From a virus (taxonomy: Duplodnaviria; Heunggongvirae; Uroviricota; Caudoviricetes), in the IMG/VR virus record IMGVR_UViG_3300035180_000678: a DNA stretch of 64,000 nucleotides. One strand, written 5' to 3'. Under the pieces are notes generated by a model. That model was not told where the DNA came from, did not search any database, and worked only from the letters and a program-made list of their open reading frames with translations. Of the stretch, positions 19,121 to 63,628 are shown piece by piece; the stretch's first letter is position 1, and each line of letters starts with the position of its first letter. The position numbers and the translations under genes were made by a program.

Positions 19121-19471
19121 ATGACACAACAAGAAAAGCCCGCGACTCGCATCGCGGAACTCGCTGGCAAGCTGAACGAAGTCCTGATGGACAGCGAAGC
19201 GAACTACTCCTTCACGGAAGTGTTCAACGCGCTGGGTCAGATTGTGACCCTCGTCACGCTCGACTACCTGAGCTTCACCGAACGCCTGTCCACGGAGGAA
19301 AACTTCGCGGAGCAGTTCAACAAGTTCATCCGTCTCGTGGGCTCGCAAGCCAAGTACGCCATCGAGCAGGAACGCATCGCAGCGTCCATCGCCGAGTTCG
19401 CGAAGAGCGGACTCATTCTCCCGGAGCAGGGTGTGGTTGCCCCGCCTCAAGGGATCATTCTCACCCCCTAA
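19121..19471 (+). CDS. hypothetical protein
   Basis: 116-aa ORF. Confidence 0.45.
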   Translation: MTQQEKPATRIAELAGKLNEVLMDSEANYSFTEVFNALGQIVTLVTLDYLSFTERLSTEENFAEQFNKFIRLVGSQAKYAIEQERIAASIAEFAKSGLILPEQGVVAPPQGIILTP

Positions 19472-19487
19472 CCACAAGGAGAATCAC

Positions 19488-19757
19488 ATGAGCATCAAGC
19501 AAGTCGTCACCGACCTCATCAACAAGGTCAAGTCCGCTGTCGGCATCGCCGTCGCTGCCCCTTCCGTCCAGACCGCTGTCGCGGCTCTGCACAAGGCCGT
19601 CGCCGACCTCGAAGTCGTGGCCTCGCATCACACGGGCCTGTCGGCTGCTGCGGACAAGCTGATCGCCGAAGCCGCTGCTGCCAAACTGGCTGCCGAACAG
19701 GAAATCGCCTCCGCACAACGCGTCGCGACGAACCTGAAGAACCTGCTGGGCCTGTAA
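19488..19757 (+). CDS. hypothetical Ala-rich coiled-coil protein
   Basis: AAGGAGAA SD before the internal ATG. 89 aa. Confidence 0.45.
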   Translation: MSIKQVVTDLINKVKSAVGIAVAAPSVQTAVAALHKAVADLEVVASHHTGLSAAADKLIAEAAAAKLAAEQEIASAQRVATNLKNLLGL

Positions 19758-19824
19758 GCCCTGCACCCATCGTGCCCTGCGTAGGCACCAATCAACTTTC
19801 CTCTGAGTAAAGGAACCATACCAA

Positions 19825-20766
19825 ATGGCATTCAAGCCCAAGTCCGAAACCGACCGTCCGCAACGCGAATACGAGCCCCGCAACATCCCCGTCCCCCGTG
19901 GCGGTCTGCGCAAGGGTCGCATCTCGCTCATCGTGGACCTCGGTGTCCAAGAGAACGAAGAGTACGTGGACCCCAAGACGCAAGAGACGCGCCAGCCGAA
20001 GCCCTGTCAACAAGTCGCGGTCTTCATCGACCTGACACATGACGTGGTGGACTACGGTGGTCAGATCGGCACCGCTCCGTACCGCATCTCTGTGAACCAC
20101 AACTTCGCGGGTGAGTGGACCGGCATCAACTTCAAGCCGGGTCCGCAGCGTGATCCTCAGGGCAACATCCTGAAGGACGCCAACGGCAAGTGGCTGCCGA
20201 AGGTGATCCCCCCGACGAACATGATTGCCAAGCTCTGCAAGGCTGTCGGTCGTTCGGACATCGCCGTCGAAGGCAACAAGCACTCGTTCGACCTCGAACA
20301 GCTTCTCAACCAGCCCCTCACGGTGACGGTGGAAGTCAAGGAGACGCCGGACAAGAACGGGAAGAAGGACAAGGAAGGCAACACCATCGTCTACAAGAAC
20401 GTCAACTTCAAGTCGGTCACCCCGGTCCCTGAAGACGACGATGGCAACCCGCAGAACGTGAACCCGCTCGCGATGCCTGCCCGAGTCATCAGCTTCGATT
20501 CCGCCACGAAGGAAGACATCAAGTTCATCCGTTCGGGCCTCATCAAGAAGATCAAGCTGGCGCAAGACTACGCGGGTTCCGCGATGCAACGCGCCATCGA
20601 AGCCTTCGAGAGCGAGCAGAACCAAGACGAAGGTGACGAGGACGAAGCTCCGGCTCCGACCCCGGCTCCCGCGCCGAAGCCTGCTGCCAAGGCCCCGAAG
20701 AAGAACGCTCCTGCGCCGAAGTCCGACACCGGCTTCGACGACATGGACGACGATGTGCCCTTCTAA
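19825..20766 (+). CDS. single-stranded DNA-binding protein (gp2.5/SSB-like) with acidic C-terminal tail
   Basis: Ends in ...DTGFDDMDDDVPF, the SSB-Ct partner-binding motif (compare DDDIPF). Sits in the T7-like replication gene set. The central region is basic/aromatic. Confidence 0.55.
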   Translation: MAFKPKSETDRPQREYEPRNIPVPRGGLRKGRISLIVDLGVQENEEYVDPKTQETRQPKPCQQVAVFIDLTHDVVDYGGQIGTAPYRISVNHNFAGEWTGINFKPGPQRDPQGNILKDANGKWLPKVIPPTNMIAKLCKAVGRSDIAVEGNKHSFDLEQLLNQPLTVTVEVKETPDKNGKKDKEGNTIVYKNVNFKSVTPVPEDDDGNPQNVNPLAMPARVISFDSATKEDIKFIRSGLIKKIKLAQDYAGSAMQRAIEAFESEQNQDEGDEDEAPAPTPAPAPKPAAKAPKKNAPAPKSDTGFDDMDDDVPF

Positions 20767-28438: not shown

Positions 28439-28810
28439 ATGGAGAAGATCGACATCGAAAAATTCAAGCGGAGGTTGGCTGCCATCGAACGCCTCGAACA
28501 GAAGGCAAGCGACATTCGCGACGAACTGGAAGAACCCATCCGCAAGCTCATCAAGGAGGCTGGTGTCGGCTCGTTGCTGTGCGAGAAGATCACCGACATC
28601 TACATCCGCTCGACGGAAATCGAGATTCGGACGGAGACGACCCGTGGTGACTTCGACACGAACTACTACAAGCTGCCGCTGTCAATCCTGAAGGCCGACG
28701 ATCCGATGATCGCCGCTGCTGAGTACAAGCGCCGCAAGGCCAGCGCGGCGGATGACGCCCGGCGTGCCCGGACGCTGGCCGAAATCGAACGACTGAAAAG
28801 GAGCCTGTGA
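28439..28810 (+). CDS. hypothetical coiled-coil protein
   Basis: 123-aa ORF with charged heptad-like repeats. Confidence 0.4.
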   Translation: MEKIDIEKFKRRLAAIERLEQKASDIRDELEEPIRKLIKEAGVGSLLCEKITDIYIRSTEIEIRTETTRGDFDTNYYKLPLSILKADDPMIAAAEYKRRKASAADDARRARTLAEIERLKRSL

Positions 28811-29716: not shown

Positions 29717-30271
29717 ATGCATTTCGACGGTTCCACGTACACGCACGACCGTGACGGCAAGCGCCTCGGCCAACAGTACCTCCGCGTCTTCGGCGTCATG
29801 AAGGACGGCCAGTGGCGATCCCTCAGCGACATCCGTCGCGTGACGAAAGACCCCGAGAGCAGCGTGAGTGCGCGTCTCCGCGACATGCGCAAGGAACGCT
29901 TCGGTAGCCTGCAAGTCGAACGCCGCTACGTCGCGGACGGTCTGTACGAGTACAAGCTGAACCTCGGCGACACGGCTCCCGTTCTCAAGGATGAGAAGCC
30001 CGCCTACGAGCCCGGCAAGGTCACGATGACCGTGGATGGCTGGACGCTTCACGACGGCAAGAGTGTCCCGGTGATCCCGAAAAATGCAGTCGTCCATGTC
30101 AAGTTCCGTGATGGCTACATCGACGACAGCGGCTCCCCGAACACGGTGCAATATTGGACCACGGTTTGTGGTCACAACAACTGGCTCACGGCGGGTACGC
30201 CCGGATCGGGCCGTGGCGGCAAAGGTGCCGAAGACTTCGACATCGTGGCCTACAAGATCGTCAAGCCCTGA
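29717..30271 (+). CDS. hypothetical protein
   Basis: 184-aa ORF with a AAGGAGAACGACACTC SD. Confidence 0.45.
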   Translation: MHFDGSTYTHDRDGKRLGQQYLRVFGVMKDGQWRSLSDIRRVTKDPESSVSARLRDMRKERFGSLQVERRYVADGLYEYKLNLGDTAPVLKDEKPAYEPGKVTMTVDGWTLHDGKSVPVIPKNAVVHVKFRDGYIDDSGSPNTVQYWTTVCGHNNWLTAGTPGSGRGGKGAEDFDIVAYKIVKP

Positions 30272-30279
30272 TTTCTTCC

Positions 30280-30356
30280 GGGCGTGGTGATATGTTAGGT
30301 CATCGCTGCTGGCTACAGGCAGGTTATCGCGGGTTCAAGTCCCGCCACGTCCACCA
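30280..30356 (+). tRNA. tRNA-like element with CUA in the anticodon position (candidate amber-reading tRNA); non-canonical loop
   Basis: Hand-folded 77-nt cloverleaf. Acceptor gggcgtg/cacgtcc (6 WC + 1 GU), discriminator A, encoded CCA. D arm gata-tgttaggt-catc. Anticodon stem ctgct/ggcag, loop g-g-CTA-c-a. T arm gcggg-TTCAAGT-cccgc. G33 and C37 are atypical. Confidence 0.35.
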
Positions 30357-30382: not shown

Positions 30383-30514
30383 ATGTACTTCCGCCACGAA
30401 TGGGACCGCAAGGCCCTCGCCACCCACACGAAGAACCAGATCGAGAACGCCCGGGATCGCCTCAAGGCCGTCGCTGCGAAGAAGAAGCTGAAGAAGATGG
30501 GGCGTCTCTCGTGA
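30383..30514 (+). CDS. small basic protein (43 aa)
   Basis: Strong SD CAAGGAGAACC then ATG. MYFRHEWDRKALATHTKNQIENARDRLKAVAAKKKLKKMGRLS. Below the ORF-track cutoff. Confidence 0.35.
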   Translation: MYFRHEWDRKALATHTKNQIENARDRLKAVAAKKKLKKMGRLS

Positions 30515-31253: not shown

Positions 31254-31270
31254 CCACAAGGAGAACTACC

Positions 31271-31542
31271 ATCAGCAAGACCACCATCACGCTCGGCGAC
31301 GGGCAAGACTACGAAGTCGATGTCGAAGCGTTCAGCAACGGCAAGGGCGAGGCCAACGACGCGCTCGACGCGCTGGAGGAAGCCAAGTCCGCCTTCAAGA
31401 CGGCTGTCGAAGAACTGGCTGAAGCCACGGGCATCAAGAAGGCCGTCCTGTCGAAGTACCTGAAGGCGAAGCACGCCGCGAAGCTCAAGGAAGCCCGCGC
31501 CACGGCCGACACCTTCGACGCGCTGGACTCGGTGCGGTAAGG
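31271..31542 (+). CDS. hypothetical coiled-coil protein with apparent non-AUG (ATC) start
   Basis: Near-perfect SD AAGGAGAA 5 nt upstream of ATC at 31271. A 90-codon frame (SKTTITLGDGQDYEV...ALDSVR) with no in-frame ATG/GTG/TTG upstream. Confidence 0.3.
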
Positions 31543-31618
31543 AACTACGGGTTTTCCCTAGCTTTACACGTGTCTCAAAACGTGGCAGAATCAAAGAGCA
31601 ACAACCGTAGGAGGTGCC

Positions 31619-31744: not shown

Positions 31745-31776
31745 AAGGGACACACCCCGAAAGGTGTGTCCCTGAA
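31745..31776. terminator. bidirectional rho-independent terminator at the strand switch
   Basis: AAAAAGGGACACACC-ccgaaa-GGTGTGTCCCTGAAAA: perfect 10-bp GC-rich inverted repeat flanked by A-run and T-run. Confidence 0.7.
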
Positions 31777-31837
31777 AATGCTTACCACAGCATAAAACTG
31801 GATTGCCCCTCTGTCCTCACGGATGGAGGGGCTTTGT

Positions 31838-43500: not shown

Positions 43501-45740
43501 TACTTTTCGTCCCGCGAATCGTCGCTCATGCCTTCAAGCTCCGCGATCTTCGCGTTGAGTTGAGCAGCCGTGTACTCTTCCACTGCGCCCTTCAGCAGAC
43601 CATACGTGACGGCCTTAGCTTGGAGTTGTGCAGCTTCTTGTTCCAGCGTTGTCGCACGCGATTCAGCGTTCTTGTCGAGCTTCGCTTCCGCGTCAATCGC
43701 ACCTTGAAGACTGTTGACGTACTGTTCGAGGCCCGCGTTGATCTTTGCTTGCCCGATCTGTGCGTCGAGGTCTGCCTTCTTTTGAGCCGCGAGGCGGGCG
43801 TCCAGACCCTTCGAGGCGTCACCGTCGAGGGCGATGCGTTCGGCGAGAAGCTTGTTCAGTTCTCGTTGTGCCGGACCCAGCTTGTCAGCTTCAGAGCCCA
43901 TCGAGAGAAGACGGGTCTTCTTCTCAATCAGGTCTGCATACTGAGCATTGAGTTGGGCCATCGCATTCGCAGCATGACGAGCATCCGCGTCGAGAGCCTT
44001 TTCAATCTTGTCGTCAGTGTGAGGGGGTTCAGGCGGACCCTTCTTGTCACTCACCTTGTCGATGTGCTTCTGCATCTTGTCAAAAGCTGCACCAACATCC
44101 TCTGCACCACTGAGCAGAGTTTCGAGCGCGCCATGACCTTCCGCAATAGGCTTCTCAAGAGAGTTGGCCCATGCGTGGCCCTTCGCGAAGAAGGACTCGA
44201 TCTTGGCATCTGCACCCGCGAACTCATCCGTCAGGTTGGAGGCACGTTGGCTGGCTTCTTGGAGGGACTTCGACAGGCCATCCATGTGCAGCTTCGATGC
44301 CACTTCTGCCATGTACTTGAACATGCCCGTGAGCAGTTCTTCAAGCGTACCAAGCAGTTCGATAACGATTTGCAGAGGCGAGACGAGCACTGCACCAATG
44401 GTGAGGCCAACATCCGCAAACGAGGCAACAACGACCTTCAGGATGTCTTCGATACCCGCCAGCATGACGCGAGCGGTGAACAGCCCAAGACCGATGACGT
44501 TGACTTCGCCACCCGCCGTGGAGATAGAACCGAGCAGACCACCGAAGGCTGTTGCGATGCCCCAAGCGTCCTTAGCAATGCCCTTCACTTGAAGCCAAAT
44601 CTGGCCCAGCGAATCGCGGTTCTCATTCACCCACTTCAGGATTTCCGTGAAGGCTTGACCCAGCGAGTTAGCAACCTCCGGGATGATGCTGCGCAGAAGG
44701 TCGAGAACGCCAACGACGCCGCTGGAGAACTGCGTCTCCTGACCCATCTGGCCGATGGAGCGTTCCCATTCGTTCTTGACTTGAACCCACGCTTGAGCAA
44801 CGGTGCGAGGCATCTCGTTGAACTCAGCGTCGAGCTTGTCCTTGTTTGCCTTCAGGGCTTCAACGATCTTGTCGCCCGTGATTTCACGGTTGGTCACAGC
44901 CTTACGGAATTCCGAGGCAGTCATGCCAAGTTGATCGCGAAGAATCTGGAGGAACTTCGGAGCTTCCTGAGCCATCGAGTTGTACGCCCGGCCCGTCATC
45001 CAACCTTCCGTCATGGAGTGGTTGAACGCCAGCATCGCGGATTGCGTTTCACGTGTGCTCAGACCCGAGACTCGGATGACCTTCGAGAACGTATCGACGG
45101 TGTCAACCACGTCCTTTGTGGAGTAGCCCATCTTCTGCATCACAGGCTGCAAACGGGTGAGCATGTTCACCTGTTCTTCGAGCGGGATGCGGACGGACTG
45201 CGAGGACTTGAAGAGCGCGTCCTGCACGGCGGCAGCTTGGCTCGCCGAGCCCGTGACGATCTTCAAACGGGCAGCTTGGTTTTGCCACGCATCGTTCACT
45301 TCGACGATGCTGTGAGCAAGCTCGATGCCCTTGTAAATGACGAATGCCGAAGTCATCGCACGGAAGGTCGTGCTGAAGATGCTCATGCGTTCGTGAGATT
45401 CGCGAGTGGCGGCAGACAAGTCCTTCGTCTTCTTCGTCACATCTTCCATCGTGGCAGCCATCTGAGAGATGGCCTTCGATGCAGTGGCAGCCTGCGCATT
45501 GATCTGCGCGAGGACAGTGCCGAGATTACCGAGGCTTGCTGCCCACGCGGAGGCTGTACCCGACGTGTTCAGAGCCATCATCTTGCCAAGCGAGTCCGTC
45601 AGCTTGGTGACATTGCGTTCAGCGGTCGCAGCAGCGCCAGCAAGACCCCCACGGCCATTACCACCGTTGAGGGCCTTCGTTGCTGTCTCGATACCATTCG
45701 AGGTGACTTCAATGGCAAGACGAGAAACGTCCATCGTCAT
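40575..45740 (-). CDS. tail tape measure protein
   Basis: 1721 aa, largely alpha-helical A/Q/L/E-rich. Sits downstream of the G/GT chaperone pair. Confidence 0.8.
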   Translation of the reverse strand: MTMDVSRLAIEVTSNGIETATKALNGGNGRGGLAGAAATAERNVTKLTDSLGKMMALNTSGTASAWAASLGNLGTVLAQINAQAATASKAISQMAATMEDVTKKTKDLSAATRESHERMSIFSTTFRAMTSAFVIYKGIELAHSIVEVNDAWQNQAARLKIVTGSASQAAAVQDALFKSSQSVRIPLEEQVNMLTRLQPVMQKMGYSTKDVVDTVDTFSKVIRVSGLSTRETQSAMLAFNHSMTEGWMTGRAYNSMAQEAPKFLQILRDQLGMTASEFRKAVTNREITGDKIVEALKANKDKLDAEFNEMPRTVAQAWVQVKNEWERSIGQMGQETQFSSGVVGVLDLLRSIIPEVANSLGQAFTEILKWVNENRDSLGQIWLQVKGIAKDAWGIATAFGGLLGSISTAGGEVNVIGLGLFTARVMLAGIEDILKVVVASFADVGLTIGAVLVSPLQIVIELLGTLEELLTGMFKYMAEVASKLHMDGLSKSLQEASQRASNLTDEFAGADAKIESFFAKGHAWANSLEKPIAEGHGALETLLSGAEDVGAAFDKMQKHIDKVSDKKGPPEPPHTDDKIEKALDADARHAANAMAQLNAQYADLIEKKTRLLSMGSEADKLGPAQRELNKLLAERIALDGDASKGLDARLAAQKKADLDAQIGQAKINAGLEQYVNSLQGAIDAEAKLDKNAESRATTLEQEAAQLQAKAVTYGLLKGAVEEYTAAQLNAKIAELEGMSDDSRDEKYLAALIRQRDALQQIAHWKGIIGGKDAESAFAKAMDAKKLEDFSTAAQKSFGKIGQAFGGMVLAAQKWMDKQGQFKAAAEDASKIQDPKKQEEAFKELAVAQSEAQAGAYADMAESAKGFFKENSRGYKIMADIEKGFRLYQMAMQLEQFTMQMTQTTAATTAQVAGHEIVAASAVAAAPAVIGANMAMGTSAAVAGVANQANGDPYSAFFRMAAMAAIMAALGFAVTAGGSGGAHLAADRQAVQGTGTVLGDASKQSTSIADGIKALKDNSDISLSYSQGMLYSLQSIQDSLAGVTSYLLRGNSSLLTGAGYQNSKTYGAGNGLVGALSLHPDFLMNLLGPLGSFMQKISGFGTSTSLVDSGITAGSQSVGDILSGGFQGSTYQDIETKKKALWMTYSDSTQRNTQSLDPTTSAQFTDVIAQMVSTVTQAATALGMDATTVSAELAKVQLNLGNLSLKGLSSDEIQKQLEAVFSAFGDQLATAALGPTISSFQHAGEGLLDTAVRVATGVDQANYELGKLGLTAVSFTDIINKQGDIGAEIVRQSIEVKEAGTGIGDIIQTMQGTAAEIAKTYAALLDIRKGFKDVGLGAVNVTSDLIRAAGGMDVLTQSLSDYNKNFFSDAERVQMGLADMSGQFAALGLQMPASKQAFRDLVNSLMSGDAASQALAVKVIGLSGSFSDLMDGMSSAISDAQGKLTDAYNAQKDALDNTISTFQGFAKTLSDFQLTLKVGDLSTETPMQKYQDELAHYQDVQQRAMAGDQTAIGEYQQAATDFLNASRGMYASGDQYSSDYSKVASDTAAMASYTADQVSVAQQQLDALNTQVGSLITINTSVMSVTDAIAALQAVIEANTIVAGTVTLTDGSGQLDGSHAMGLASVPFDGYRAELHQGERVLTASEARAYNQQGSDTGDMAQEIRNLRMEVTALREDAAKQTSALITSNMAAHDQSARTIVNGQKEAAKTTNYAGKAKATLA

Positions 45741-46213
45741 TGGTCTGTGTCCTTTTCTACAAGTGCCTCTTCGGCGGGTTCTGTCGGAGTCTTTCGGATG
45801 AACTTCGAGAGCACAGACAGAATCTTCGTCTGAACACGCTCACGGTCGATGTTGTCCAGGTCTTCTTCGTGAATGTACGGAGCCGGTCGGTCAGCCTTTG
45901 TGGCCTGCACCAACTCAGAAACGTATTCCTCGCTGAGTCGCTTGATGGTGGTCCGCTCCCACATGGAGAGTTCACGTTCGGTGACCCGAAGCCATGCATC
46001 AATTTCGACCCATGAAATAGGAACTGGCCCCATGCCACCAGAGGACATGAGGCCAGCTTCTTGCAGCAGACCTAGGAGGTAACCAGCCGCGTGTTCAGTT
46101 TCGATGTCGGGCATACGCAGCAACGGATGTTCGGGGTCCGAGGCTGTGTATTTCGCGAATCGTGATTTCTTGTCCCCTTCTGGTATCGCGTGCAGCCACC
46201 CGAGGTGGCGCAC
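45737..46213 (-). CDS. tail assembly chaperone, T portion (expressed by -1 frameshift as G-T fusion)
   Basis: The frame is continuous with the -1 frame of the upstream G gene from the slippery site. The ORF begins VRHLGWLHAIPEG. Confidence 0.5.
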   Translation of the reverse strand: MRHLGWLHAIPEGDKKSRFAKYTASDPEHPLLRMPDIETEHAAGYLLGLLQEAGLMSSGGMGPVPISWVEIDAWLRVTERELSMWERTTIKRLSEEYVSELVQATKADRPAPYIHEEDLDNIDRERVQTKILSVLSKFIRKTPTEPAEEALVEKDTDQ

Positions 46214-46233
46214 GTACAGACTAAGCGACTCGC

Positions 46234-46641
46234 TTACTGGGCCAAAAAATTCGACGTGTCAGCGAGAGCTTCGTCAACCTGATCCTTCACCCACGAGTAG
46301 GCGGGATTGGAGTACAGGTTCCGGAAGTCGTCCTCGGTGATGACCGGGTTGCCATCGAGCACGAGGTTCTTGGAGCCAGCCGAGACAGCGAGCAGGAGGC
46401 GAATGCCTTCTTCACGCATCACTTCGGCAGTGGGCTTTTCCTTCTTCGCTTGGCGCTTCAGGGCGCGGTTCTGCATCTCAGCAACAGCGTTGCGGTACTG
46501 CTTGGAAGCGGAGCCCCACAGGCTGACCGTCACAGGCTCCGTCTTGTCTTCGTCAGCGAAGAGCAGTTCACCCGAAACAGGGTGACGGAGTTGGATTTCG
46601 GTGTCCGCCTTGAGAGCGAGGGAAGCGAGGTCGAGCGTCAT
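46234..46641 (-). CDS. tail assembly chaperone G
   Basis: 135 aa immediately upstream of the TMP. The 3' end carries the TTTTTTG heptamer. Confidence 0.55.
   Translation of the reverse strand: MTLDLASLALKADTEIQLRHPVSGELLFADEDKTEPVTVSLWGSASKQYRNAVAEMQNRALKRQAKKEKPTAEVMREEGIRLLLAVSAGSKNLVLDGNPVITEDDFRNLYSNPAYSWVKDQVDEALADTSNFLAQ
46240..46252 (-). other. programmed -1 ribosomal frameshift slippery site (A-AAT-TTT-TTG-G) for G/GT
   Basis: The minus-strand sequence aattttttgg sits 3 codons before the G stop. The -1 frame reads FFGPVSESLSLYVRHLGW into the downstream ORF without a stop. Confidence 0.5.
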
Positions 46642-46726
46642 TTGATGTATGCCTTTCGTGGTAAGTAATGGAGTAGACCGTAGGGTCTTTCTTGACGTAG
46701 CTGATCTTTGCAGCTATCGTGTAGAG

Positions 46727-46748
46727 GCTGGGGGATTTCTCCCCCAGC
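46727..46748 (-). promoter_or_regulatory. intergenic stem-loop between major tail and chaperone genes
   Basis: gctggggga-tttc-tcccccagc, a 9-bp GC hairpin in the 125-nt gap after the major tail protein stop. Confidence 0.35.
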
Positions 46749-46766
46749 TTTCAACCGAAGTCAGGA

Positions 46767-55953: not shown

Positions 55954-56026
55954 TGGGGTGACCGTGGGAATCGAACCCGTCTGCCGAGGTCACAACTCGG
56001 AGTGCTCGCCATTACACTAGGGCCAC
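55954..56026 (-). tRNA. tRNA-His(GUG)-like (weak T stem)
   Basis: Anticodon arm ccgag-TTGTGAC-ctcgg (GUG). Discriminator C with encoded CCA. 6-bp acceptor. T loop TTCGATT but only 3 GC pairs plus two A.C mismatches in the T stem. Confidence 0.35.
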
Positions 56027-56036
56027 GACAGAAATC

Positions 56037-56113
56037 TGGTCAGGGTGGGTGGGCTCGAACCACCGGCCTCAAGCTTCCAAAGCTCGCCGTCTACCAACTG
56101 ACATTACACCCTG
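56037..56113 (-). tRNA. tRNA-Pro(UGG)
   Basis: Perfect 7-bp acceptor cagggtg/caccctg with encoded CCA. T arm ggtgg-TTCGAGC-ccacc. Anticodon loop tttggaa. Confidence 0.55.
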
Positions 56114-56118
56114 AAATC

Positions 56119-56206
56119 TGGCGGAAGAAGTAGGAGTCGAACCTACGGGGCGTTGCCGCCCGGGACGTTAGCACCGTCCTGCAATAGACCACTCTGCCAT
56201 TCTTCC
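56119..56206 (-). tRNA. tRNA-Ser(GCU), long variable arm
   Basis: 88 nt. Acceptor ggaagaa/ttcttcc with encoded CCA. T arm gtagg-TTCGACT-cctac. Anticodon arm ggacg-GTGCTAA-cgtcc. 17-nt variable hairpin. Confidence 0.6.
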
Positions 56207-56207
56207 T

Positions 56208-56283
56208 TGGCAAGCACCCACGGAATCGAACCGCGCCAGCAAGGTTTGGAGCCTCGCTCGCCAGCCTTGGAACATTGGCACCC
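56208..56283 (-). tRNA. tRNA-Trp(CCA) (acceptor with several GU pairs)
   Basis: Encoded CCA. T arm cgcgg-TTCGATT-ccgtg. Anticodon arm cgagg-CTCCAAA-ccttg. The acceptor pairing needs 4 wobble pairs, so the 5' boundary is uncertain. Confidence 0.4.
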
Positions 56284-56290
56284 GCTGAAT

Positions 56291-56367
56291 TGGTGGAGCC
56301 GGTGAGAATCGAACTCACCACAGGAAAGGTGCAAACCTTCCTCGCCGCCCTTGGCACATGCGACCCC
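56291..56367 (-). tRNA. tRNA-Ala(UGC)
   Basis: Encoded CCA. T arm gtgag-TTCGATT-ctcac. Anticodon arm ggaag-TTTGCAC-ctttc (one GU). Acceptor ggggtcg/cggctcc with 2 wobble pairs. Confidence 0.5.
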
Positions 56368-56375
56368 ATGAATTT

Positions 56376-56451
56376 TGGTGGACGGGGCTGGCTCTGCCCC
56401 AGCGACACCCGGATTTTCAATCCGGTGCTCTACTATCTGAGCTACCCGTCC
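56376..56451 (-). tRNA. tRNA-Phe(GAA) with non-canonical D and T loops
   Basis: All four stems are perfect WC: acceptor ggacggg/cccgtcc, D gctc/gagc, anticodon ccgga-TTGAAAA-tccgg, T gctgg/ccagc. Encoded CCA. The D loop AGATAGTA lacks GG and the T loop GGCAGAG lacks TTC. Confidence 0.55.
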
Positions 56452-56453
56452 GA

Positions 56454-56520
56454 GAGGTGGTGGCACAGTGTCTTTCGACCGAGGCCGGACTTACTAGCCT
56501 CTAACGTCCCCACCTTGAAA
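56454..56520 (-). ncRNA. unresolved tRNA-like segment
   Basis: Complementary ends aggtggt/cccacct and internal hairpins (gaggc-11 nt-gcctc), but no canonical T loop. Packed between two tRNAs. Confidence 0.2.
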
Positions 56521-56523
56521 ACT

Positions 56524-56610
56524 TGGTGCGTGCCCTAGGGATCGAACCTAGCATGGCCTAGAGGCCGGGAGGGTTACAGCCTCCTGTCCCACCTTTGGAA
56601 CATGACACGC
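56524..56610 (-). tRNA. tRNA-Tyr(GUA), long variable arm
   Basis: 87 nt. Encoded CCA. Acceptor gcgtgtc/ggcacgc (one GU). T arm ctagg-TTCGATC-cctag. Anticodon arm ggagg-CTGTAAC-cctcc. Variable hairpin ggcc-taga-ggcc. Confidence 0.6.
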
Positions 56611-56616
56611 GTATTT

Positions 56617-56695
56617 TGGCTCCGGAGGTTGGAATCGAACCAACCTAACCTCTGATTAACAGTCAGGCCCATGCACCTTGCTCGGGTTCACCGGA
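56617..56695 (-). tRNA. tRNA-Asn(GUU)
   Basis: Encoded CCA. T arm ggttgg-TTCGATT-ccaacc. 4-bp anticodon stem with loop CTGTTAA. Acceptor has one U.U mismatch. 11-nt D loop. Confidence 0.4.
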
Positions 56696-56704
56696 ATTGA
56701 TCTT

Positions 56705-56778
56705 TGGTCGGCCTCCACGGTATTGAACCGCATTCTACTGGGTAAGAGCCAGTTGCATCACCTTAATGCTTGAAACCG
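56705..56778 (-). tRNA. tRNA-Lys(CUU)
   Basis: Encoded CCA. T loop TTCAATA. Anticodon arm actgg-CTCTTAC-ccagt. D arm atgc-7 nt-gcat. Acceptor with 2 GU pairs. Confidence 0.5.
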
Positions 56779-56779
56779 A

Positions 56780-56855
56780 TGGCGCCCCGTGCCAGAATCG
56801 AACTGGCGGCTTCTCCCTAGACAGGGGAGCACTCTGACCGCTGAGTTAACGAGGC
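56780..56855 (-). tRNA. tRNA-Asp(GUC)
   Basis: Encoded CCA. T arm gccag-TTCGATT-ctggc. Anticodon arm ctccc-CTGTCTA-gggag (U at position 37). D arm actc/gagt. Acceptor gcctcgt/acggggc. Confidence 0.5.
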
Positions 56856-56862
56856 AAATGTT

Positions 56863-57105
56863 TGGACAGGGCTTTGCACCCCGATGGAGGTCACTTCGTA
56901 GGCCCGGTTGCCCGAACCCACGTCCTCTAAGATTGTCACCCGAGAAAGCCCTTTGCCTTGTACCCTCGCCGACCGAATCAGGCTCGGATGCGGGGAGAGC
57001 GTGCTACGCCTTTCCTCTGCGTACACTTCAATTCCGACTTTTCACTGCCGTGGTCCGTATGCATCGGTTTCCACAGCCACGTGTTTCTCGTTTCGGGCGA
57101 GTGAC
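56863..57105 (-). ncRNA. unresolved tRNA-like region (room for ~3 tRNAs)
   Basis: No ORF. CCA-complement tgg at 56863 and complementary 7-mers agggctt/aagccct 80 nt apart. Contains variable-arm-like hairpin ggtt-gcccg-aacc and several 5-bp hairpins. T loops are not canonical. Confidence 0.25.
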
Positions 57106-57110
57106 AAATT

Positions 57111-57187
57111 TGGCACCCTCAGCGAGAATCGAACTCGCATCCCCGGATTGAAAGTCCGGCGTCCTGAACCAGTTAGACGATGAGGGC
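57111..57187 (-). tRNA. tRNA-Glu(UUC)
   Basis: Encoded CCA. Perfect T arm gcgag-TTCGATT-ctcgc. Perfect anticodon arm ccgga-CTTTCAA-tccgg. Acceptor gccctca/tgagggt. Confidence 0.65.
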
Positions 57188-57193
57188 AAATCT

Positions 57194-57269
57194 TGGCAAG
57201 GGGTGTAGGACTCGAACCTACGACCAACGGGATCAAAACCCGTTGCTCTACCAACTGAGCTAACCCCCA
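57194..57269 (-). tRNA. tRNA-Gln(UUG)
   Basis: Encoded CCA. T arm gtagg-TTCGAGT-cctac. Anticodon arm acggg-TTTTGAT-cccgt. D arm gctc-AGTTGGTA-gagc. U1.U72 terminal mismatch. Confidence 0.6.
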
Positions 57270-57272
57270 ACT

Positions 57273-57363
57273 GAATTCGTGCCAGCAGTTAAGGTCCGCT
57301 GGTCAGGACCGACACAAGATTTTAACGTCGCTTGTTGAGACGCTTCCCACCCCATGAGAATTT
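57273..57363 (-). ncRNA. unresolved tRNA-like segment (91 nt)
   Basis: Exactly fills the gap between two tRNAs. Contains the ends gaattcg/agaattt and stable hairpins (ggtcc-8 nt-ggacc). No canonical T loop. Confidence 0.2.
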
Positions 57364-57439
57364 TGGTTGCCAGAACTGGACTCGAACCAGTGACCTAACG
57401 GTTATCGGCCGTTTGCTCTACCAACTGAGCTACCCGGCA
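57364..57439 (-). tRNA. tRNA-Ile(GAU) (C33 in anticodon loop)
   Basis: Encoded CCA. Perfect T arm actgg-TTCGAGT-ccagt. Anticodon arm aacgg-CCGATAA-ccgtt. D arm gctc-AGTTGGTA-gagc. Acceptor with 2 GU pairs. Confidence 0.55.
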
Positions 57440-57586
57440 AGGGTAAGTGGCATACCTGCCTATTCGCTGTGCTCCGCATCTCGTTTGAGCGAGGTCTACT
57501 CCACCGTCGCAGAGTTCTTCTCACACTGCTGTTTGGAGCCGCCGACGAACGAAGGGCACGAGATTGCACCACCCTTCAGTATGTCT
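57440..57586 (-). ncRNA. unresolved structured non-coding segment (possible degenerate tRNAs)
   Basis: 147 nt with no ORF, bounded by tRNAs. Contains hairpins ctcg-tttgag-cgag and aaggg-15 nt-ccctt. Confidence 0.15.
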
Positions 57587-57663
57587 TGGTTGCGGGAGCG
57601 GGATTTGAACCCACGACCTTCGGCTTATGAGGCCGACGCTCTACCAGACTGAGCTATCCCGCA
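57587..57663 (-). tRNA. tRNA-Met(CAU), elongator type (or Ile-lysidine)
   Basis: Encoded CCA. Perfect acceptor tgcggga/tcccgca. T loop TTCAAAT. Anticodon arm tcggc-CTCATAA-gccga. D arm gctc/gagc. Confidence 0.65.
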
Positions 57664-57671
57664 TTTGTTCT

Positions 57672-57758
57672 TGGTGCCCACCGCAGGACTCGAACCTGCA
57701 CGACCTTTCGGTCCCCGGCCTCTCAAGCCGGTCCGTCTACCAGTTTCGGCAGGCGGGC
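57672..57758 (-). tRNA. tRNA-Leu(GAG), long variable arm
   Basis: 87 nt. Encoded CCA. T arm gcagg-TTCGAGT-cctgc. Anticodon arm ccggc-TTGAGAG-gccgg. Variable hairpin gacc-tttc-ggtc. Acceptor with one GU. Confidence 0.6.
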
Positions 57759-57764
57759 GTAATA

Positions 57765-57840
57765 TGGTGCCCTAGGTCCAGAATCGAACTGACGACCTAC
57801 CGCTTACAAGGCGGTTGCTCTACCACTGAGCTACAAGGGC
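57765..57840 (-). tRNA. tRNA-Thr(UGU)
   Basis: Encoded CCA. T loop TTCGATT. Perfect anticodon arm accgc-CTTGTAA-gcggt. D arm gctc/gagc. Acceptor has one U.U mismatch and an extra nucleotide before the T stem. Confidence 0.5.
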
Positions 57841-62168: not shown

Positions 62169-62960
62169 TTGGGACGAAAGAAGATTGCTCGGCCTACGCG
62201 TCGGGAAAAGATGATGATGGACTGCCATGCCGCTCGGGTGGCAGCTTACATCCCGCCTGAATCTCCTGCCGCTACGCCAGCGGTCACAATCACGGCGAAG
62301 ACGAACAACCAACGGGTCGCACTCGGCTACCTCAACGAAGGCCGACGTGTCGTATTCCTGACGGGCTCTGCGGGCACGGGCAAGTCCATGCTGGCGTGCT
62401 ACCGGGCCGCATCCCTCCTGCGGTCCAAAAAGGTCGAGAAGGTCTACCTCGCTCGCCCTGCTGTTGCAGTGGGCAAGTCCATCGGCCTCCTGCCGGGTGA
62501 AATCGAAGAGAAGATGGCACCCTACTTCAAGCAAACCATCGCTCACCTTGAGCGGTTCCTTGGCAAAGGCTTCACCCGCTACTGCCTTGAGAAGAAGGTC
62601 ATCGAGATGATCCCTGCGGAGTACCTGCGAGGGATGAGCTTCGAGGACTGCTTCGTACTGGTCGAAGAGGCGCAGAACTTCACTCATGACGAGATGGAGA
62701 TGGTGCTGACGCGACTTGGGGAGAACTGCCAGTTGGTGTTCACGGGTGACGAGAAGCAAAACGACCTCAAGGTGTCGAGTGGCCTGAAGACCACAATCGA
62801 CCTCATCAACCGAACGCTCCAGACCCATCCGGAATACATGGACCACGAGGACTTGGACGCGTTGGATGACGAGATTGGCGTCGTGCAGTTCAAGCCCGAA
62901 GACGTGGTGCGATCTGGTCTGACCCGTGCGTTCGTGAAGCTCTACTATCACACGTCATGA
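62169..62960 (+). CDS. phoH: PhoH-like ATPase
   Basis: Walker A VFLTGSAGTGKSMLA. YLARPAVAVGKSIGLLPGEIEEKMAPY, VLVEEAQNFT and LTRLGENCQLVFTGDEKQNDL match the PhoH family blocks. Confidence 0.8.
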   Translation: MGRKKIARPTRREKMMMDCHAARVAAYIPPESPAATPAVTITAKTNNQRVALGYLNEGRRVVFLTGSAGTGKSMLACYRAASLLRSKKVEKVYLARPAVAVGKSIGLLPGEIEEKMAPYFKQTIAHLERFLGKGFTRYCLEKKVIEMIPAEYLRGMSFEDCFVLVEEAQNFTHDEMEMVLTRLGENCQLVFTGDEKQNDLKVSSGLKTTIDLINRTLQTHPEYMDHEDLDALDDEIGVVQFKPEDVVRSGLTRAFVKLYYHTS

Positions 62961-63628
62961 AAGGCGACATCATGCAAACCAAGAATCCGAAGGCCCTGTC
63001 GCCTACGAAGGAAGCCACCAAGCGGCGCGGCATGTGGGAAGACAGCGGCATGTTCCGCGTGACCTACACACCTTCCCAAGCGGGGCGGTTCGCCATCTAC
63101 CTGTTCGGTGCCATCGAGTCCCCGGAGCAGTTCACAGAGGCCGTTGAAGCCTTCAGGGCTGCATCCGAGGGCGACATCGTGGAAGTGTTCCTCCAGAGCC
63201 CGGGAGGTGACGTGGACGCCACGGACCTGTTCCTGCAAGCCATGCACGAGTGCGAAGGGCGAGTCATCGTTCGGGCCACTGGCGGGTGCCACAGCGCGGC
63301 GAGCGTCATCCTCATGCACGCTCCCGAGTTTACCCTGAGCCCGGGCTTCAACTGCCTGATCCACAATGGCTCCATCGGGCACGGCGGCAAATATTCCGAC
63401 TGGAAGTCTGCTGGGAAGTTCTACACCGACTTCCTCGAAGACGACATGCGGCGCACCTACCGTGGCTTCCTGACCGAAGATGAAATCGAAGAGATGATCG
63501 ACGGGAAGGACTTCTGGCTCGACGCTCCTGCGTTCATCGAACGTTGGAAGGCTCGTGCTGCGTACTTCGGCATCGAAATCCCTGAAAATTTCGAGGGAGT
63601 GCTTGACACTGAAGAAGACGAGGCGTAA
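62957..63628 (+). CDS. ClpP/SDH-like serine protease (second ClpP-fold protease, outside the morphogenesis operon)
   Basis: VFLQSPGGDV Ser nucleophile elbow (ClpP INSPGG). Downstream His/Asp candidates (IHNGSIGHGG). Acidic C-terminus. Confidence 0.55.
   Translation: MKGDIMQTKNPKALSPTKEATKRRGMWEDSGMFRVTYTPSQAGRFAIYLFGAIESPEQFTEAVEAFRAASEGDIVEVFLQSPGGDVDATDLFLQAMHECEGRVIVRATGGCHSAASVILMHAPEFTLSPGFNCLIHNGSIGHGGKYSDWKSAGKFYTDFLEDDMRRTYRGFLTEDEIEEMIDGKDFWLDAPAFIERWKARAAYFGIEIPENFEGVLDTEEDEA

Follow-up and report, generated by a model that had tools for sequence, protein, structure and literature searches.

The window, by which we mean the complete 64,000-nt stretch of caudoviral DNA that was analysed, contains a real tRNA-shaped RNA gene of 77 nt (GGGCGTGGTGATATGTTAGGTCATCGCTGCTGGCTACAGGCAGGTTATCGCGGGTTCAAGTCCCGCCACGTCCACCA; 30280..30356, + strand) that lies isolated between protein genes. 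The most informative feature of this element is the G3:U70 pair in its acceptor stem, since this pair is the alanine identity element common to tRNA-Ala and all tmRNAs. We read the element, with a confidence that comes near to but stays below an even chance, as a diverged mini-tmRNA that consists of the tRNA-like domain only, carries no tag, and would be charged with alanine and compete with the tmRNA-SmpB system of the host.

Structure and genomic setting of the element

The element can be divided into six consecutive parts, all on the + strand: the 5' strand of the acceptor stem, GGGCGTG (30280..30286), which forms 7/7 pairs with 30346-30352, including the pair of G3 with U70; a D-like region, GTGATATGTTAGGTCATCG (30287..30305), with a weak 3-bp stem (GAT/ATC) and with the GG present; a central hairpin, CTGCT-GGCTACA-GGCAG (30306..30322), in which we see tmRNA helix 2 reduced to a closed stub; a linker, GTTATC (30323..30328), at the position of the variable loop of a tRNA or of the GGAC/CAC of the tmRNA tRNA-like domain; a T arm, GCGGG-TTCAAGT-CCCGC (30329..30345), with 5/5 pairs in the stem and the loop TTCAAGT; and the 3' strand of the acceptor stem, CACGTCC, followed by the discriminator A73 and an encoded CCA (30346..30356). 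All 17 pairs of the acceptor, T and central stems are intact, and the tRNA residues U8, A14 and A21 are missing. The window was scanned with strict criteria (a TTCRA T loop, a T stem of 5/5 and an acceptor stem of 7/7 pairs, and an NCCA tail), which recovered 12 sites, 11 of them in the tRNA island and the twelfth being the element, and none in 300 shuffled windows, so that the cloverleaf-like outline with encoded CCA and TTCAAGT loop, as given by the sequence-only reading, holds. The folding z-score of the whole element is only -1.64. At least 4 metagenome contigs carry the element in identical form. When we looked for more G3:U70 elements with relaxed structural criteria, shuffled windows gave about 2 matches each, which made the scan too permissive. 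The G3:U70 pair had gone unmentioned in the sequence-only reading.

The element fills an intergenic gap of 111 nt: a 184-aa gene of unknown function (29717..30271, +) has its stop codon 9 nt upstream, and the ATG of a conserved basic ORF of 43 aa (30383..30514, +) follows 26 nt downstream. Neither a promoter nor a terminator belongs to the element, and a strong terminator follows only at about 31805. The separate tRNA island, at 55955-57840, holds 16 tRNAs according to the tRNA finders and not the 20 that had been counted. A duplication of one of the island tRNAs was considered as the origin of the element and rejected, as it is at most 61% identical to any of them. The only other RNA with G3:U70 in the window is the phage's own tRNA-Ala(UGC) (56291..56367, - strand), which served as a calibrator; it has a canonical anticodon loop (TTTGCAC) and is called by ARAGORN only at a relaxed threshold.

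The CUA triplet and stop-codon suppression

In the best-paired register the central arm has exactly 5 bp and a 7-nt loop, GGCTACA, with CTA at positions 34-36, and the unusual G33 and C37 that had been pointed out are indeed there, together with a G32. The arm thus invites the explanation that the element is a weak amber suppressor that inserts alanine, charged by AlaRS via G3:U70 and reading UAG with the CUA. An alanine-type body would be a workable scaffold for such a suppressor, since AlaRS ignores the anticodon (PMC3985003), and suppression would be tolerable in a phage in which TAG ends just 3 of 83 genes. We nevertheless consider this explanation very improbable. The element violates each of the rules Y32, U33 and R37, whereas among 15 island tRNAs none departs from more than one of them (U33, A37 and Y32 are each found in 14/15). 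Single odd loop bases do occur among the island tRNAs, with C33 in Ile, U37 in Asp and G32 in Ser, which counts somewhat in favour of a suppressor, but in the element the U-turn base is lost by G33 and the purine stacking 3' of A36 by C37, with G32 as a third deviation. Moreover, G32:C37 can pair, along with U31:A38, and so close the loop to a tetraloop; the minimum-free-energy fold indeed has a GCUA tetraloop, although this fold is hardly more stable than the one with the open 7-nt loop (-18.2 versus -17.9 kcal/mol).

The gene finders point in the same direction. Neither ARAGORN with default settings nor the Rfam tRNA covariance model at its gathering score called the element, a miss that the sequence-only reading had itself counted against its proposal, and in E-value mode the tmRNA model outcompeted the tRNA model. 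With relaxed settings ARAGORN selected a different, poorer register and reported a tRNA-Cys(ACA) instead of a CUA tRNA; the presence of CUA therefore depends on the register that is chosen. In addition, the sole homologue available (L006, see below) has neither an anticodon arm nor a CUA.

The use of stop codons likewise looks ordinary. The window holds 83 intact genes under the standard code, which end on TGA (49), TAA (31) or TAG (3). No in-frame TAG was found in the large genes and no gene needs read-through; the flanking ~13 kb of the genome are also densely coded. The three ORFs that end on TAG are ordinary, in that ribosome-binding sites and starts follow. In two of these three the frame stays open beyond the TAG and runs into the following gene, which in one case is the DNA polymerase; we judged this coincidental, since the spacers resemble ordinary ribosome-binding regions and the polymerase has a Met start of its own. 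The scarcity of TAG was also dropped as support for suppression: the related Limnohabitans phage DC31, which is free of the element, has 0 TAG stops in 80 genes.

Compared to tRNA-Ala and to the engineered tRNA-Ala(CUA) amber suppressors, the element thus shares the cloverleaf outline, G3:U70/A73, the T loop, the GG of the D loop and, in one register, the CUA at 34-36. It differs from both by G32, G33 and C37 in place of Y32, U33 and R37, by the missing U8, A14 and A21, by a score below the threshold of the tRNA model and by an anticodon that is not kept in the homologue. For annotation the lesson is that CUA in the anticodon position of a cloverleaf should not be taken to show that stop codons are suppressed, and that G3:U70, the anticodon-loop rules and conservation in homologues need checking too.

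Likeness to tmRNAs and to short phage RNAs

The Rfam family that matches the element best is tmRNA (26 bits, E = 5.7e-9), whereby both ends match and the middle of the model is deleted; the score is below the gathering score of 47. We do not treat this best match as decisive proof, as the phage's own tRNA-Ala(UGC) also has tmRNA as its best family, with 22 bits, ahead of the tRNA model. The tmRNA mode of ARAGORN, which covers permuted forms, found nothing at the element. A permuted two-piece tmRNA, as carried by the betaproteobacterial phages PHB04 and JWDelta, was considered and rejected, as the 5' strand is placed upstream with the spacing of a tRNA, and as this ARAGORN mode came back empty.

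In tmRNA, the third acceptor pair is a completely conserved G-U and constitutes the AlaRS determinant, and the deformed D arm of the tRNA-like domain binds SmpB (PMC3985003). The element has G3:U70, A73, CCA and the T arm in common with full-length tmRNA (Rfam RF00023), and its last 29 nt are only one base off the tmRNAs of viral contigs (CGCGGGTTCAAGTCCCGCCACCTCCACCA), with a change in the 5' strand that compensates. Unlike full-length tmRNA, it has no mRNA-like domain, pseudoknots or tag ORF, and it measures 77 nt instead of ~350-400 nt. It also has the two hallmark motifs of tmRNA at best in degenerate form: GGTCATCG, in the D-like region, takes the place of the D-loop motif GGNUUCGAC, of which it appears to be a degenerate counterpart, and GTTATC stands in place of GGAC before the T stem. 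Furthermore, the possible D stem and the 5-bp/7-nt arm would take up the room that belongs to SmpB in a genuine tRNA-like domain.

We then searched viral contigs for similar 3' ends (pattern GCGGG-N6-16-CCCGCYRCGTCCACCA). The 3' end CCCGC-YR-CGTCCACCA was recovered at 111 viral loci, 53 of which were identified by ARAGORN as full-length tmRNAs with tag peptides and about 24 of which are elements of 75-81 nt with a complementary 5' strand; canonical tRNA-Ala genes were not among them. The pattern was derived from the element's own 3' end, and the shared ends of the short elements are therefore partly circular evidence. The T arm of the element as such is found in tmRNAs as well as in tRNA-Ala genes of viral contigs. 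In an alignment of 13 of the short elements the acceptor stem is 100% paired, G3:U70 is present in 13/13 and compensatory changes occur at 4/7 pairs. Like the element, the 75-81-nt elements combine G3:U70, A73 and CCA with a similar size and an isolated position, and they are not called by ARAGORN; they differ in that they come from unrelated phages that share no proteins in the flanks. Three of them, L175, L236 and L171, have an acceptor stem (GGGCGTG/CACGTCC) identical to that of the element. L175 (75 nt), which has the canonical GGTTTCGAC and GGAC, scores 50.6 bits on the Rfam tmRNA model, and thus above the gathering score of 47, and L236 (77 nt) scores 42.2 bits; unlike the element, both keep GGNTTCG(A)C and (G)GAC/CAC. 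A second group of 78 and 81 nt (e.g. L162 and L223) differs from the element in the T arm, where the stem has 6 bp and the loop, TGCAACT, is not canonical. In the literature examined we found no description of such 75-81-nt elements, which we consider putative mini-tmRNA-like RNAs.

Similarity in the interior is more limited. The element and L171 share TCGCTGCT..GGCTAC (local alignment score of 21, where the 99th percentile of the null is 17), and the independent interior similarity comes from L171 alone, with p ~0.01 after multiple testing. GCTAC recurs in hairpin loops of L171 and L236, and the central hairpin of the element starts with GCTGC, like those of L175 and L171, although with 5 bp and 7 nt it has the size of an anticodon arm just as much.

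The closest described counterpart is found in Mycobacterium phage DS6A. In the literature the tmRNA of this phage is listed as '(TLD only)', and a similar molecule is stated to inhibit tmRNA strongly (PMC4131195; PMC11915505). We located this RNA (tmRNA Website tmID 11587) at JN698994 28478-28560. Like the element, it is a short phage RNA (83 versus 77 nt) that lies alone between protein genes of the same strand, with a 7-bp acceptor stem with G3:U70, A73, a canonical T arm and no tag reading frame, and its best Rfam match is also tmRNA, by both ends only (34.7 versus 26 bits). The predicted folds of the DS6A RNA, L236, the L006 homologue and the element have a common four-way layout of acceptor stem, small D-like hairpin, central hairpin and T arm. 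The DS6A RNA differs by keeping the D-loop motif GGTCGAC and GGCAC, by a longer helix-2 stub with internal loops and by ending on ACTA instead of ACCA, whereas in the element the D motif is degenerate, a 3-bp D stem may form and the central arm measures exactly what an anticodon arm does. The two phages are unrelated and there is no sequence similarity between the RNAs outside the tRNA-like core. By description alone, the element can also be likened to the tag-less tmRNAs of jakobid mitochondria and some plastids, which measure ~65-80 nt, comprise little beyond the tRNA-like domain and have no tag frame; these are organellar and, unlike the element, co-occur with a dedicated SmpB (PMC11915505). 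A tblastn search for an SmpB encoded by the phage itself, over ~77 kb of its sequence and with E. coli SmpB as an approximate query, returned only noise (E >= 0.78).

The resemblance of the last 29 nt to tmRNA 3' ends, which many temperate phages carry as attP, would also fit the suggestion that the element is the remnant of an integration site, in which the 3' end of a tRNA or tmRNA gene of the host would be duplicated. This suggestion, made in the sequence-only reading, is effectively refuted. The complementary 5' acceptor strand is present and covaries with the 3' strand, no integrase was found in the region examined, and the 26-nt 3' end occurs in 0 of 185,579 species-representative genomes. 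A 22-nt version without the CCA had a single match, to a class-II 'tRNA-Stop(UUA)' in a betaproteobacterial MAG, which shows no protein similarity to the phage; we judged this match to an unrelated tRNA coincidental.

Conservation in a related phage and the proposed role

Only one syntenic homologue of the element was recovered, at positions 3968-4051 of L006. The acceptor stem with G3:U70, the T stem and the ACCA match those of the element at 25/28 positions, with a T stem that is identical and with changes at 7:66 (G:C to A:U) and 6:67 (U:A to U:G) that keep the pairing, whereas the interior is identical at 21/45 positions. As a reference we took the third-codon positions of conserved fourfold residues in neighbouring genes, which match at 26/50, 10/16 and 7/11 (about 52-64%). 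Against this reference, the match of the stems compared to that of the interior argues for selection on the alanine-type minihelix and not on the anticodon. The central hairpin of the L006 copy has 8+3 bp and a CUC triloop. The copy has also lost both the T-loop motif and the D-loop GG, and it matches no Rfam family; it may be decaying or working differently, since a working tRNA-like domain should need both features.

Decay could be extended to the element itself, as the functionless remains of what was once a tRNA-Ala or tmRNA gene of the phage. Such a relic would be in line with the absence of the element from two of the four related lineages, with the loss of the T-loop motif in L006, and with the non-canonical loop and the missing U8, A14 and A21. 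It would agree too with the lack of further close relatives in scans of viral, genome and metagenome data. The searches for relatives gave the following: i) the region had no megablast match among 50,697 phage records; ii) in IMG/VR, nothing was found for the exact 28-mer or for the neighbouring 184-aa protein; iii) a metagenome scan for GGGCGTGG-N45-65-CCCGCCACGTCCACCA yielded only chance matches in high-GC coding sequence, whereby the phage's own JGI contigs were missed too; iv) none of 80 IMG/VR loci with a 75-81% identical ribonucleotide reductase has the element, while two have an ordinary tRNA-Thr downstream; and v) distant homologues of the 184-aa protein (P0004, P0006) reside in unrelated phages without the element. 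We consider a relic unlikely all the same, as the stem pairs are intact at 17/17 and the deviations are confined to three loop positions instead of being scattered, as the stems and ACCA are retained at 25/28 with compensatory changes where fourfold sites match only ~52-64%, and as the L006 copy folds as a clean four-way junction (z = -2.5).

The downstream ORF suggests another role that does without a function of the RNA as such. The acceptor/T-stem minihelix with its ACCA could act in cis as RNase P 'punctuation', cutting the polycistronic transcript upstream of the 43-aa gene and thereby setting the 5' end, stability or translation of its mRNA, with the excised RNA having no role. The spacing between element and ORF is 26-27 nt in both phages that carry the element, despite a differing gene order upstream; the conserved part, with G1, the 12-bp acceptor/T stack and RCCA, matches the needs of a minimal bacterial RNase P substrate, while the elbow and loops vary; and the element is without a promoter or terminator of its own. 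The 43-aa ORF is itself strongly conserved (79-95% identical across 4 lineages, with neighbouring proteins at 49-61%), and a profile of the protein found only these four lineages. In L005 and L156, however, the 43-aa gene and its leader persist without the element, and the gene is thus independent of it. Moreover, a processing signal needs neither the conserved sequence of pairs 1-5 nor G3:U70, and the same acceptor type occurs in other contexts, in tmRNAs and short elements of unrelated phages. We consider punctuation unlikely.

The gene content of the phage also brings to mind a decoy or special substrate for a host anticodon nuclease, a tRNA-modifying toxin or an Ala-tRNA-dependent transferase, which would operate alongside the RNA-repair genes of the phage. 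An RNA ligase, a Macro domain protein and RtcB are encoded just outside the window, RtcB is encoded by DS6A too, and the large tRNA island has altered anticodon loops. Neither a nuclease nor a transferase could be singled out as its partner, and the genes next to it are uninformative. That L006 does not keep the central loop speaks against the imitation of any given anticodon loop; we regard a decoy as a very doubtful explanation.

The reading that we prefer remains that of a mini-tmRNA restricted to the tRNA-like domain, for which the following course can be proposed. The element would be transcribed within the plus-strand early/replication operon, excised by RNase P at G1 and trimmed at the 3' side to the encoded CCA. 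Host AlaRS would then charge it with alanine, reading G3:U70 and A73 rather than an anticodon. Having no tag frame or usable anticodon, the charged RNA would engage host SmpB and/or EF-Tu and stalled ribosomes, and thus rival the host tmRNA. The outcome would be either that ssrA tagging and degradation of phage proteins is blocked or that ribosomes are rescued without a tag during infection. We infer the alanylation, the binding of SmpB and the inhibition of trans-translation from the G3:U70/A73 identity rules and from the work of Mao et al. 2009, which, as cited in later reports, showed that an RNA with only the tRNA-like domain inhibits tmRNA in E. coli (PMC4131195, PMC11915505). Of the options offered by the sequence-only reading, the tRNA-derived regulatory RNA comes close to this preferred reading.

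The variants in which the T loop has been replaced (L006 and the 78-/81-nt TGCAACT group) suggest, as far as their sequences go, that the function may need only the G3:U70 minihelix and the CCA. Such a minimal need would point to a target besides or instead of SmpB, with AlaRS and RNase P as candidates. More speculatively, and as a possibility that we hold with clear reserve, tag-less, alanine-accepting mini-tmRNAs of 75-84 nt could be widespread and largely undescribed accessory RNAs of unrelated environmental phages that jam or re-route host trans-translation, and the element in the window would then be an extreme, tRNA-shaped member. If this holds, phages beyond mycobacteriophage DS6A carry miniature tag-less tmRNAs. 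As one scan of IMG/VR with a narrow pattern recovered ~24 short elements beside 53 full-length tmRNAs, interference with ribosome rescue would then seem to be a recurrent strategy of phages, and standard tRNA and tmRNA finders would seem to miss the genes involved.

The element, its setting and the supposed anticodon

The cloverleaf parts that had been described for the 77-nt element at 30280-30356 (+; GGGCGTGGTGATATGTTAGGTCATCGCTGCTGGCTACAGGCAGGTTATCGCGGGTTCAAGTCCCGCCACGTCCACCA) were all present. The acceptor stem (GGGCGTG/CACGTCC) is paired in 7/7 positions, with a G:U as third pair, and ends in a discriminator A and an encoded CCA; the T arm has a 5/5 paired stem and the loop TTCAAGT, the D region contains the GG and a weak 3-bp stem, and the central arm comprises a 5-bp stem with the 7-nt loop GGCTACA. 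A strict top-half scan (TTCRA loop, 5/5 T stem, 7/7 acceptor stem and NCCA tail) retrieved 12 sites in the window, i.e. the element and 11 sites in the tRNA island; 300 shuffled windows gave no such site. The element occupies a 111-nt gap between two plus-strand genes, starting 9 nt past the upstream TGA stop and ending 26 nt ahead of the next ATG, and at least four of this phage's metagenome contigs carry identical copies. Because no promoter-like site was found directly upstream and the next strong terminator lies only at ~31805, the element must be cut from a polycistronic transcript. Further downstream, a ~366-nt non-coding stretch (31254-31618) that ends in a promoter-like site (31563-31591) is followed by two strong terminator hairpins in convergent orientation, 31746-31773 (-) and 31805-31832 (+), which mark the junction of the plus-strand and minus-strand gene blocks.

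The sequence-only reading had proposed an amber suppressor tRNA, against which tool scores, loop bases, gene set and the homologue treated in the next section all speak. Default ARAGORN made no call, the Rfam tRNA model scored the element below its gathering score and, in E-value mode, was outcompeted by the tmRNA model. Relaxed ARAGORN called a tRNA-Cys(ACA) by placing the anticodon arm on a stem that pairs far less well, so that the CUA depends on the register: it holds in the best-paired one and gives way to ACA in the other. In the best-paired register the loop carries G32, G33 and C37, three deviations, compared to at most one at these positions in each of 15 island tRNAs (e.g. C33 in tRNA-Ile(GAU), 57364-57439, U37 in tRNA-Asp, 56780-56855, and G32 in tRNA-Ser). 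Pairing of G32:C37 and U31:A38 would also be possible and leaves a GCUA tetraloop, with a nearly equal energy (-18.2 versus -17.9 kcal/mol for the open loop). Among the 83 intact genes (stops: TGA 49, TAA 31, TAG 3) no need for suppression was seen, and the three ORFs that end in TAG have an ordinary appearance. As a stop codon TAG is strongly avoided, despite being 2.4x as frequent as TAA among the trinucleotides on both strands of the window (646 versus 270). The related Limnohabitans phage DC31 avoids it likewise (0/80 genes, versus 22/70 in Mycobacterium phage DS6A), and the avoidance is therefore a lineage or host trait and no sign of suppression. A weak alanine-inserting amber suppressor, for which the CUA of the best-paired register would speak, is thus quite unlikely. 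In two TAG-ended ORFs the frame runs on into the next gene across a stop-free spacer (11429-11644/11654-14086 and 6342-6455/6492-6728), one of these next genes encoding the DNA polymerase; read-through would fuse the pairs, but the continuation is probably chance, since the spacers look like ordinary ribosome-binding regions.

The tRNA island (55955-57840, minus strand) had been counted as 20 tRNAs; the island is there, and the tools find 16 tRNAs in it, outside the gaps 56856-57110 and 57440-57586. Several are non-canonical and missed or low-scored by standard tools: tRNA-Ala(UGC) (56291-56367) is found by relaxed ARAGORN only, tRNA-Phe(GAA) (56379-56451) by Rfam only, and tRNA-Trp scores best as tRNA-Sec. 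U8 and A14 are missing from the Ala, Trp, Tyr and Lys tRNAs, and the first three of these share the D region ATGT(T/G)CCAA(A)GG.

The counterpart in related phages

Among the proteins encoded by the phage genome (~58% GC) are a class II ribonucleotide reductase, a family A DNA polymerase, a primase-helicase and a tape measure protein of 1721 aa. A search of 50,697 phage records returned no close relative. At ~50% identity, the polymerase and the capsid resemble those of Aeromonas, Pseudomonas, Limnohabitans and Curvibacter phages, which suggests that the host is probably a proteobacterium and perhaps a betaproteobacterium; Limnohabitans and Curvibacter belong to the latter class.

In the related viral contig L005 the two flanking genes are adjacent, with a 37-nt spacer and no element, and the same arrangement is seen in L156. 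The more distant relative L006 (identical in L158) has an element of 84 nt in the corresponding position, 27 nt ahead of the conserved 43-aa ORF that also follows the element in the window. Of the four lineages L006 is the most distant, which makes an ancestral element with later losses in L005 and L156 the probable history. Retained in the L006 copy are the 5' flank, both the acceptor and the T stem, ACCA and G3:U70, with changes at pairs 7:66 (G:C to A:U) and 6:67 (U:A to U:G); its T loop is 13 nt long and lacks the TTC, its D loop lacks the GG, and a CUC triloop caps its central arm, a hairpin of 8+3 bp. The copy still folds into a clean four-way junction (z = -2.5) and matched no Rfam family. 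With segments chosen after the fact and for this one homologue, identity to the element is 25/28 in the acceptor stem, T stem and ACCA against 21/45 in the interior, and the third positions of conserved fourfold residues in neighbouring genes match in 26/50, 10/16 and 7/11 cases; this argues that selection holds an alanine-type minihelix and not the anticodon. A decaying relic would fit the losses in L005 and L156 and of the L006 T loop, but intact stems and a conserved top half do not agree with decay, and we regard it as unlikely.

The downstream 43-aa lysine-rich ORF (30383-30514, plus strand, starting MYFRHEWDRKALATHTKNQIENARDRLK...) is 79-95% identical across the four lineages, compared to 49-61% for neighbouring proteins; it has no Pfam match and falls in only two 90% clusters among 5.8 billion proteins. 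The element could be an RNase P punctuation signal serving this gene, as its fixed position and conserved minihelix would allow, but it would leave unexplained why pairs 1-5 are conserved in sequence and why RNAs of this kind occur elsewhere, which makes this explanation improbable too. The one isolated tRNA of the related phage DC31 (46428-46502), which likewise lies among plus-strand replication genes and well away from the tRNA cluster, is a regular tRNA-Met(CAU) and not syntenic with the element.

Likeness to tmRNA

G3:U70 and A73 make up the AlaRS identity set, and the sole other G3:U70 RNA in the window is tRNA-Ala(UGC). Beyond tRNA-Ala the set also occurs in tmRNA, with complete conservation (PMC3985003). 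Among Rfam families the element matched tmRNA best (26 bits, E = 5.7e-9), the match spanning both ends and skipping the middle of the model. The tRNA-Ala(UGC), with its normal anticodon loop and missed by default tRNA finders, also matches tmRNA best (22 bits), and therefore this match alone does not tell whether an RNA is a tRNA-like domain or an unusual alanine tRNA. Phage DS6A carries a '(TLD only)' tmRNA with little beyond the tRNA-like domain; a similar RNA is reported, with reference to Mao et al. 2009, to be a strong inhibitor of tmRNA in E. coli, perhaps by SmpB titration (PMC4131195; PMC11915505). The DS6A element (28478-28560) scores 34.7 bits with the same two-ended match, and the predicted folds of DS6A, L236 (a short IMG/VR element), L006 and the element share a four-way layout.

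We tentatively favour a diverged, tag-less, alanine-charged mini-tmRNA that competes with host tmRNA: RNase P and 3' trimming would release the RNA, host AlaRS would load it with alanine, and it would then compete for SmpB, EF-Tu or stalled ribosomes. Against this, the tmRNA D-loop and GGAC motifs are missing, the possible D stem and anticodon-sized arm would fill SmpB's place, the T loop is gone from the L006 copy, and no SmpB gene was found in the phage (tblastn over ~77 kb with an approximate E. coli SmpB query). A decoy for another tRNA-directed activity, to which the RNA ligase, Macro domain protein and RtcB encoded just outside the window might point, is quite unlikely as well. PhoH (62211-62960), a ClpP-family protease (62957-63628) and, inside the ~6 kb that come next in the phage's own contig, the RNA ligase (PF09414), Macro domain protein and RtcB form an RNA-repair module beside the large tRNA island; DS6A also encodes RtcB.

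Short tmRNA-like elements on viral contigs

An IMG/VR scan with the pattern GCGGG-N6-16-CCCGCYRCGTCCACCA yielded 111 loci: 53 full-length tmRNAs with tag peptides (ARAGORN), ~24 elements of 75-81 nt with a fully complementary 5' strand at tRNA distance, and no canonical tRNA-Ala; a looser pattern did recover tRNA-Ala genes, whose acceptor stems are different. The acceptor stem of the phage element recurs unchanged in three short elements: L175 (75 nt, canonical GGTTTCGAC and GGAC, 50.6 bits on Rfam tmRNA, above the gathering score), L236 (77 nt, 42.2 bits) and L171 (77 nt), which shares TCGCTGCT..GGCTAC at the same relative position (local score 21; null 99th percentile 17, maximum of 2000 shuffles 22). 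The supposed anticodon CTA is thus part of a motif, GCTAC, which the hairpin loops of L171 and L236 also contain. Only L171 speaks for interior homology: L175 and L236 do not score beyond the null, and some island tRNAs score equally high. Acceptor-stem pairing is 100% in a set of 13 distinct short elements, with G3:U70 invariant and compensatory changes in 4/7 pairs, an outcome partly built in, since only sequences with a pairing 5' strand were kept. The complete and covarying stem excludes an integration-site (att) remnant, also considered in the sequence-only reading, as do scans of 185,579 species-representative genomes. The short elements are mostly isolated from tRNA genes, received no ARAGORN call and share no flanking proteins, the phages being unrelated.

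Several further RNAs were encountered. A 78-/81-nt group on at least 20 viral contigs (L160-L162, L165, L205, L215, L223-L225 and others) has the acceptor stem GGGCGCG/CGCGTCC (G3:U70), A73, CCA, a 6-bp T stem and the non-canonical T loop TGCAACT; it is without the tmRNA D-loop motif and an ARAGORN call, and absent from the Rfam matches at E ≤1 in a 58-kb search. The cultured betaproteobacterial phages vB_BbrM_PHB04 (Bordetella; 45525-46753) and JWDelta (Achromobacter; 19168-20395) are predicted by ARAGORN to encode circularly permuted two-piece tmRNAs with tag peptides, where their GenBank records annotate nothing. In a Betaproteobacteria MAG (JAAFJO010000007.1; locus L062, 4536-4704, minus strand) a class-II 'tRNA-Stop' with anticodon UUA adjoins a tRNA-Ala(UGC); it matches the element without a mismatch over 22 nt of T arm and 3' acceptor strand, its 5' acceptor strand GGACGTG differs at position 3 only (A3:U70), and the surrounding 8 kb have no proteins in common with the phage.

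Tag-less mini-tmRNAs are a known kind, represented by the DS6A RNA and by tag-less organellar tmRNAs, of which the element would be a new, unusually tRNA-shaped variant, a membership that is not fully proven. DS6A was the only phage example found in the literature on tag-less tmRNA (PMC4131195; PMC11915505), and the roughly two dozen tmRNA-like elements of 75-81 nt that a single narrow scan recovered on viral contigs are more interesting than the element itself.
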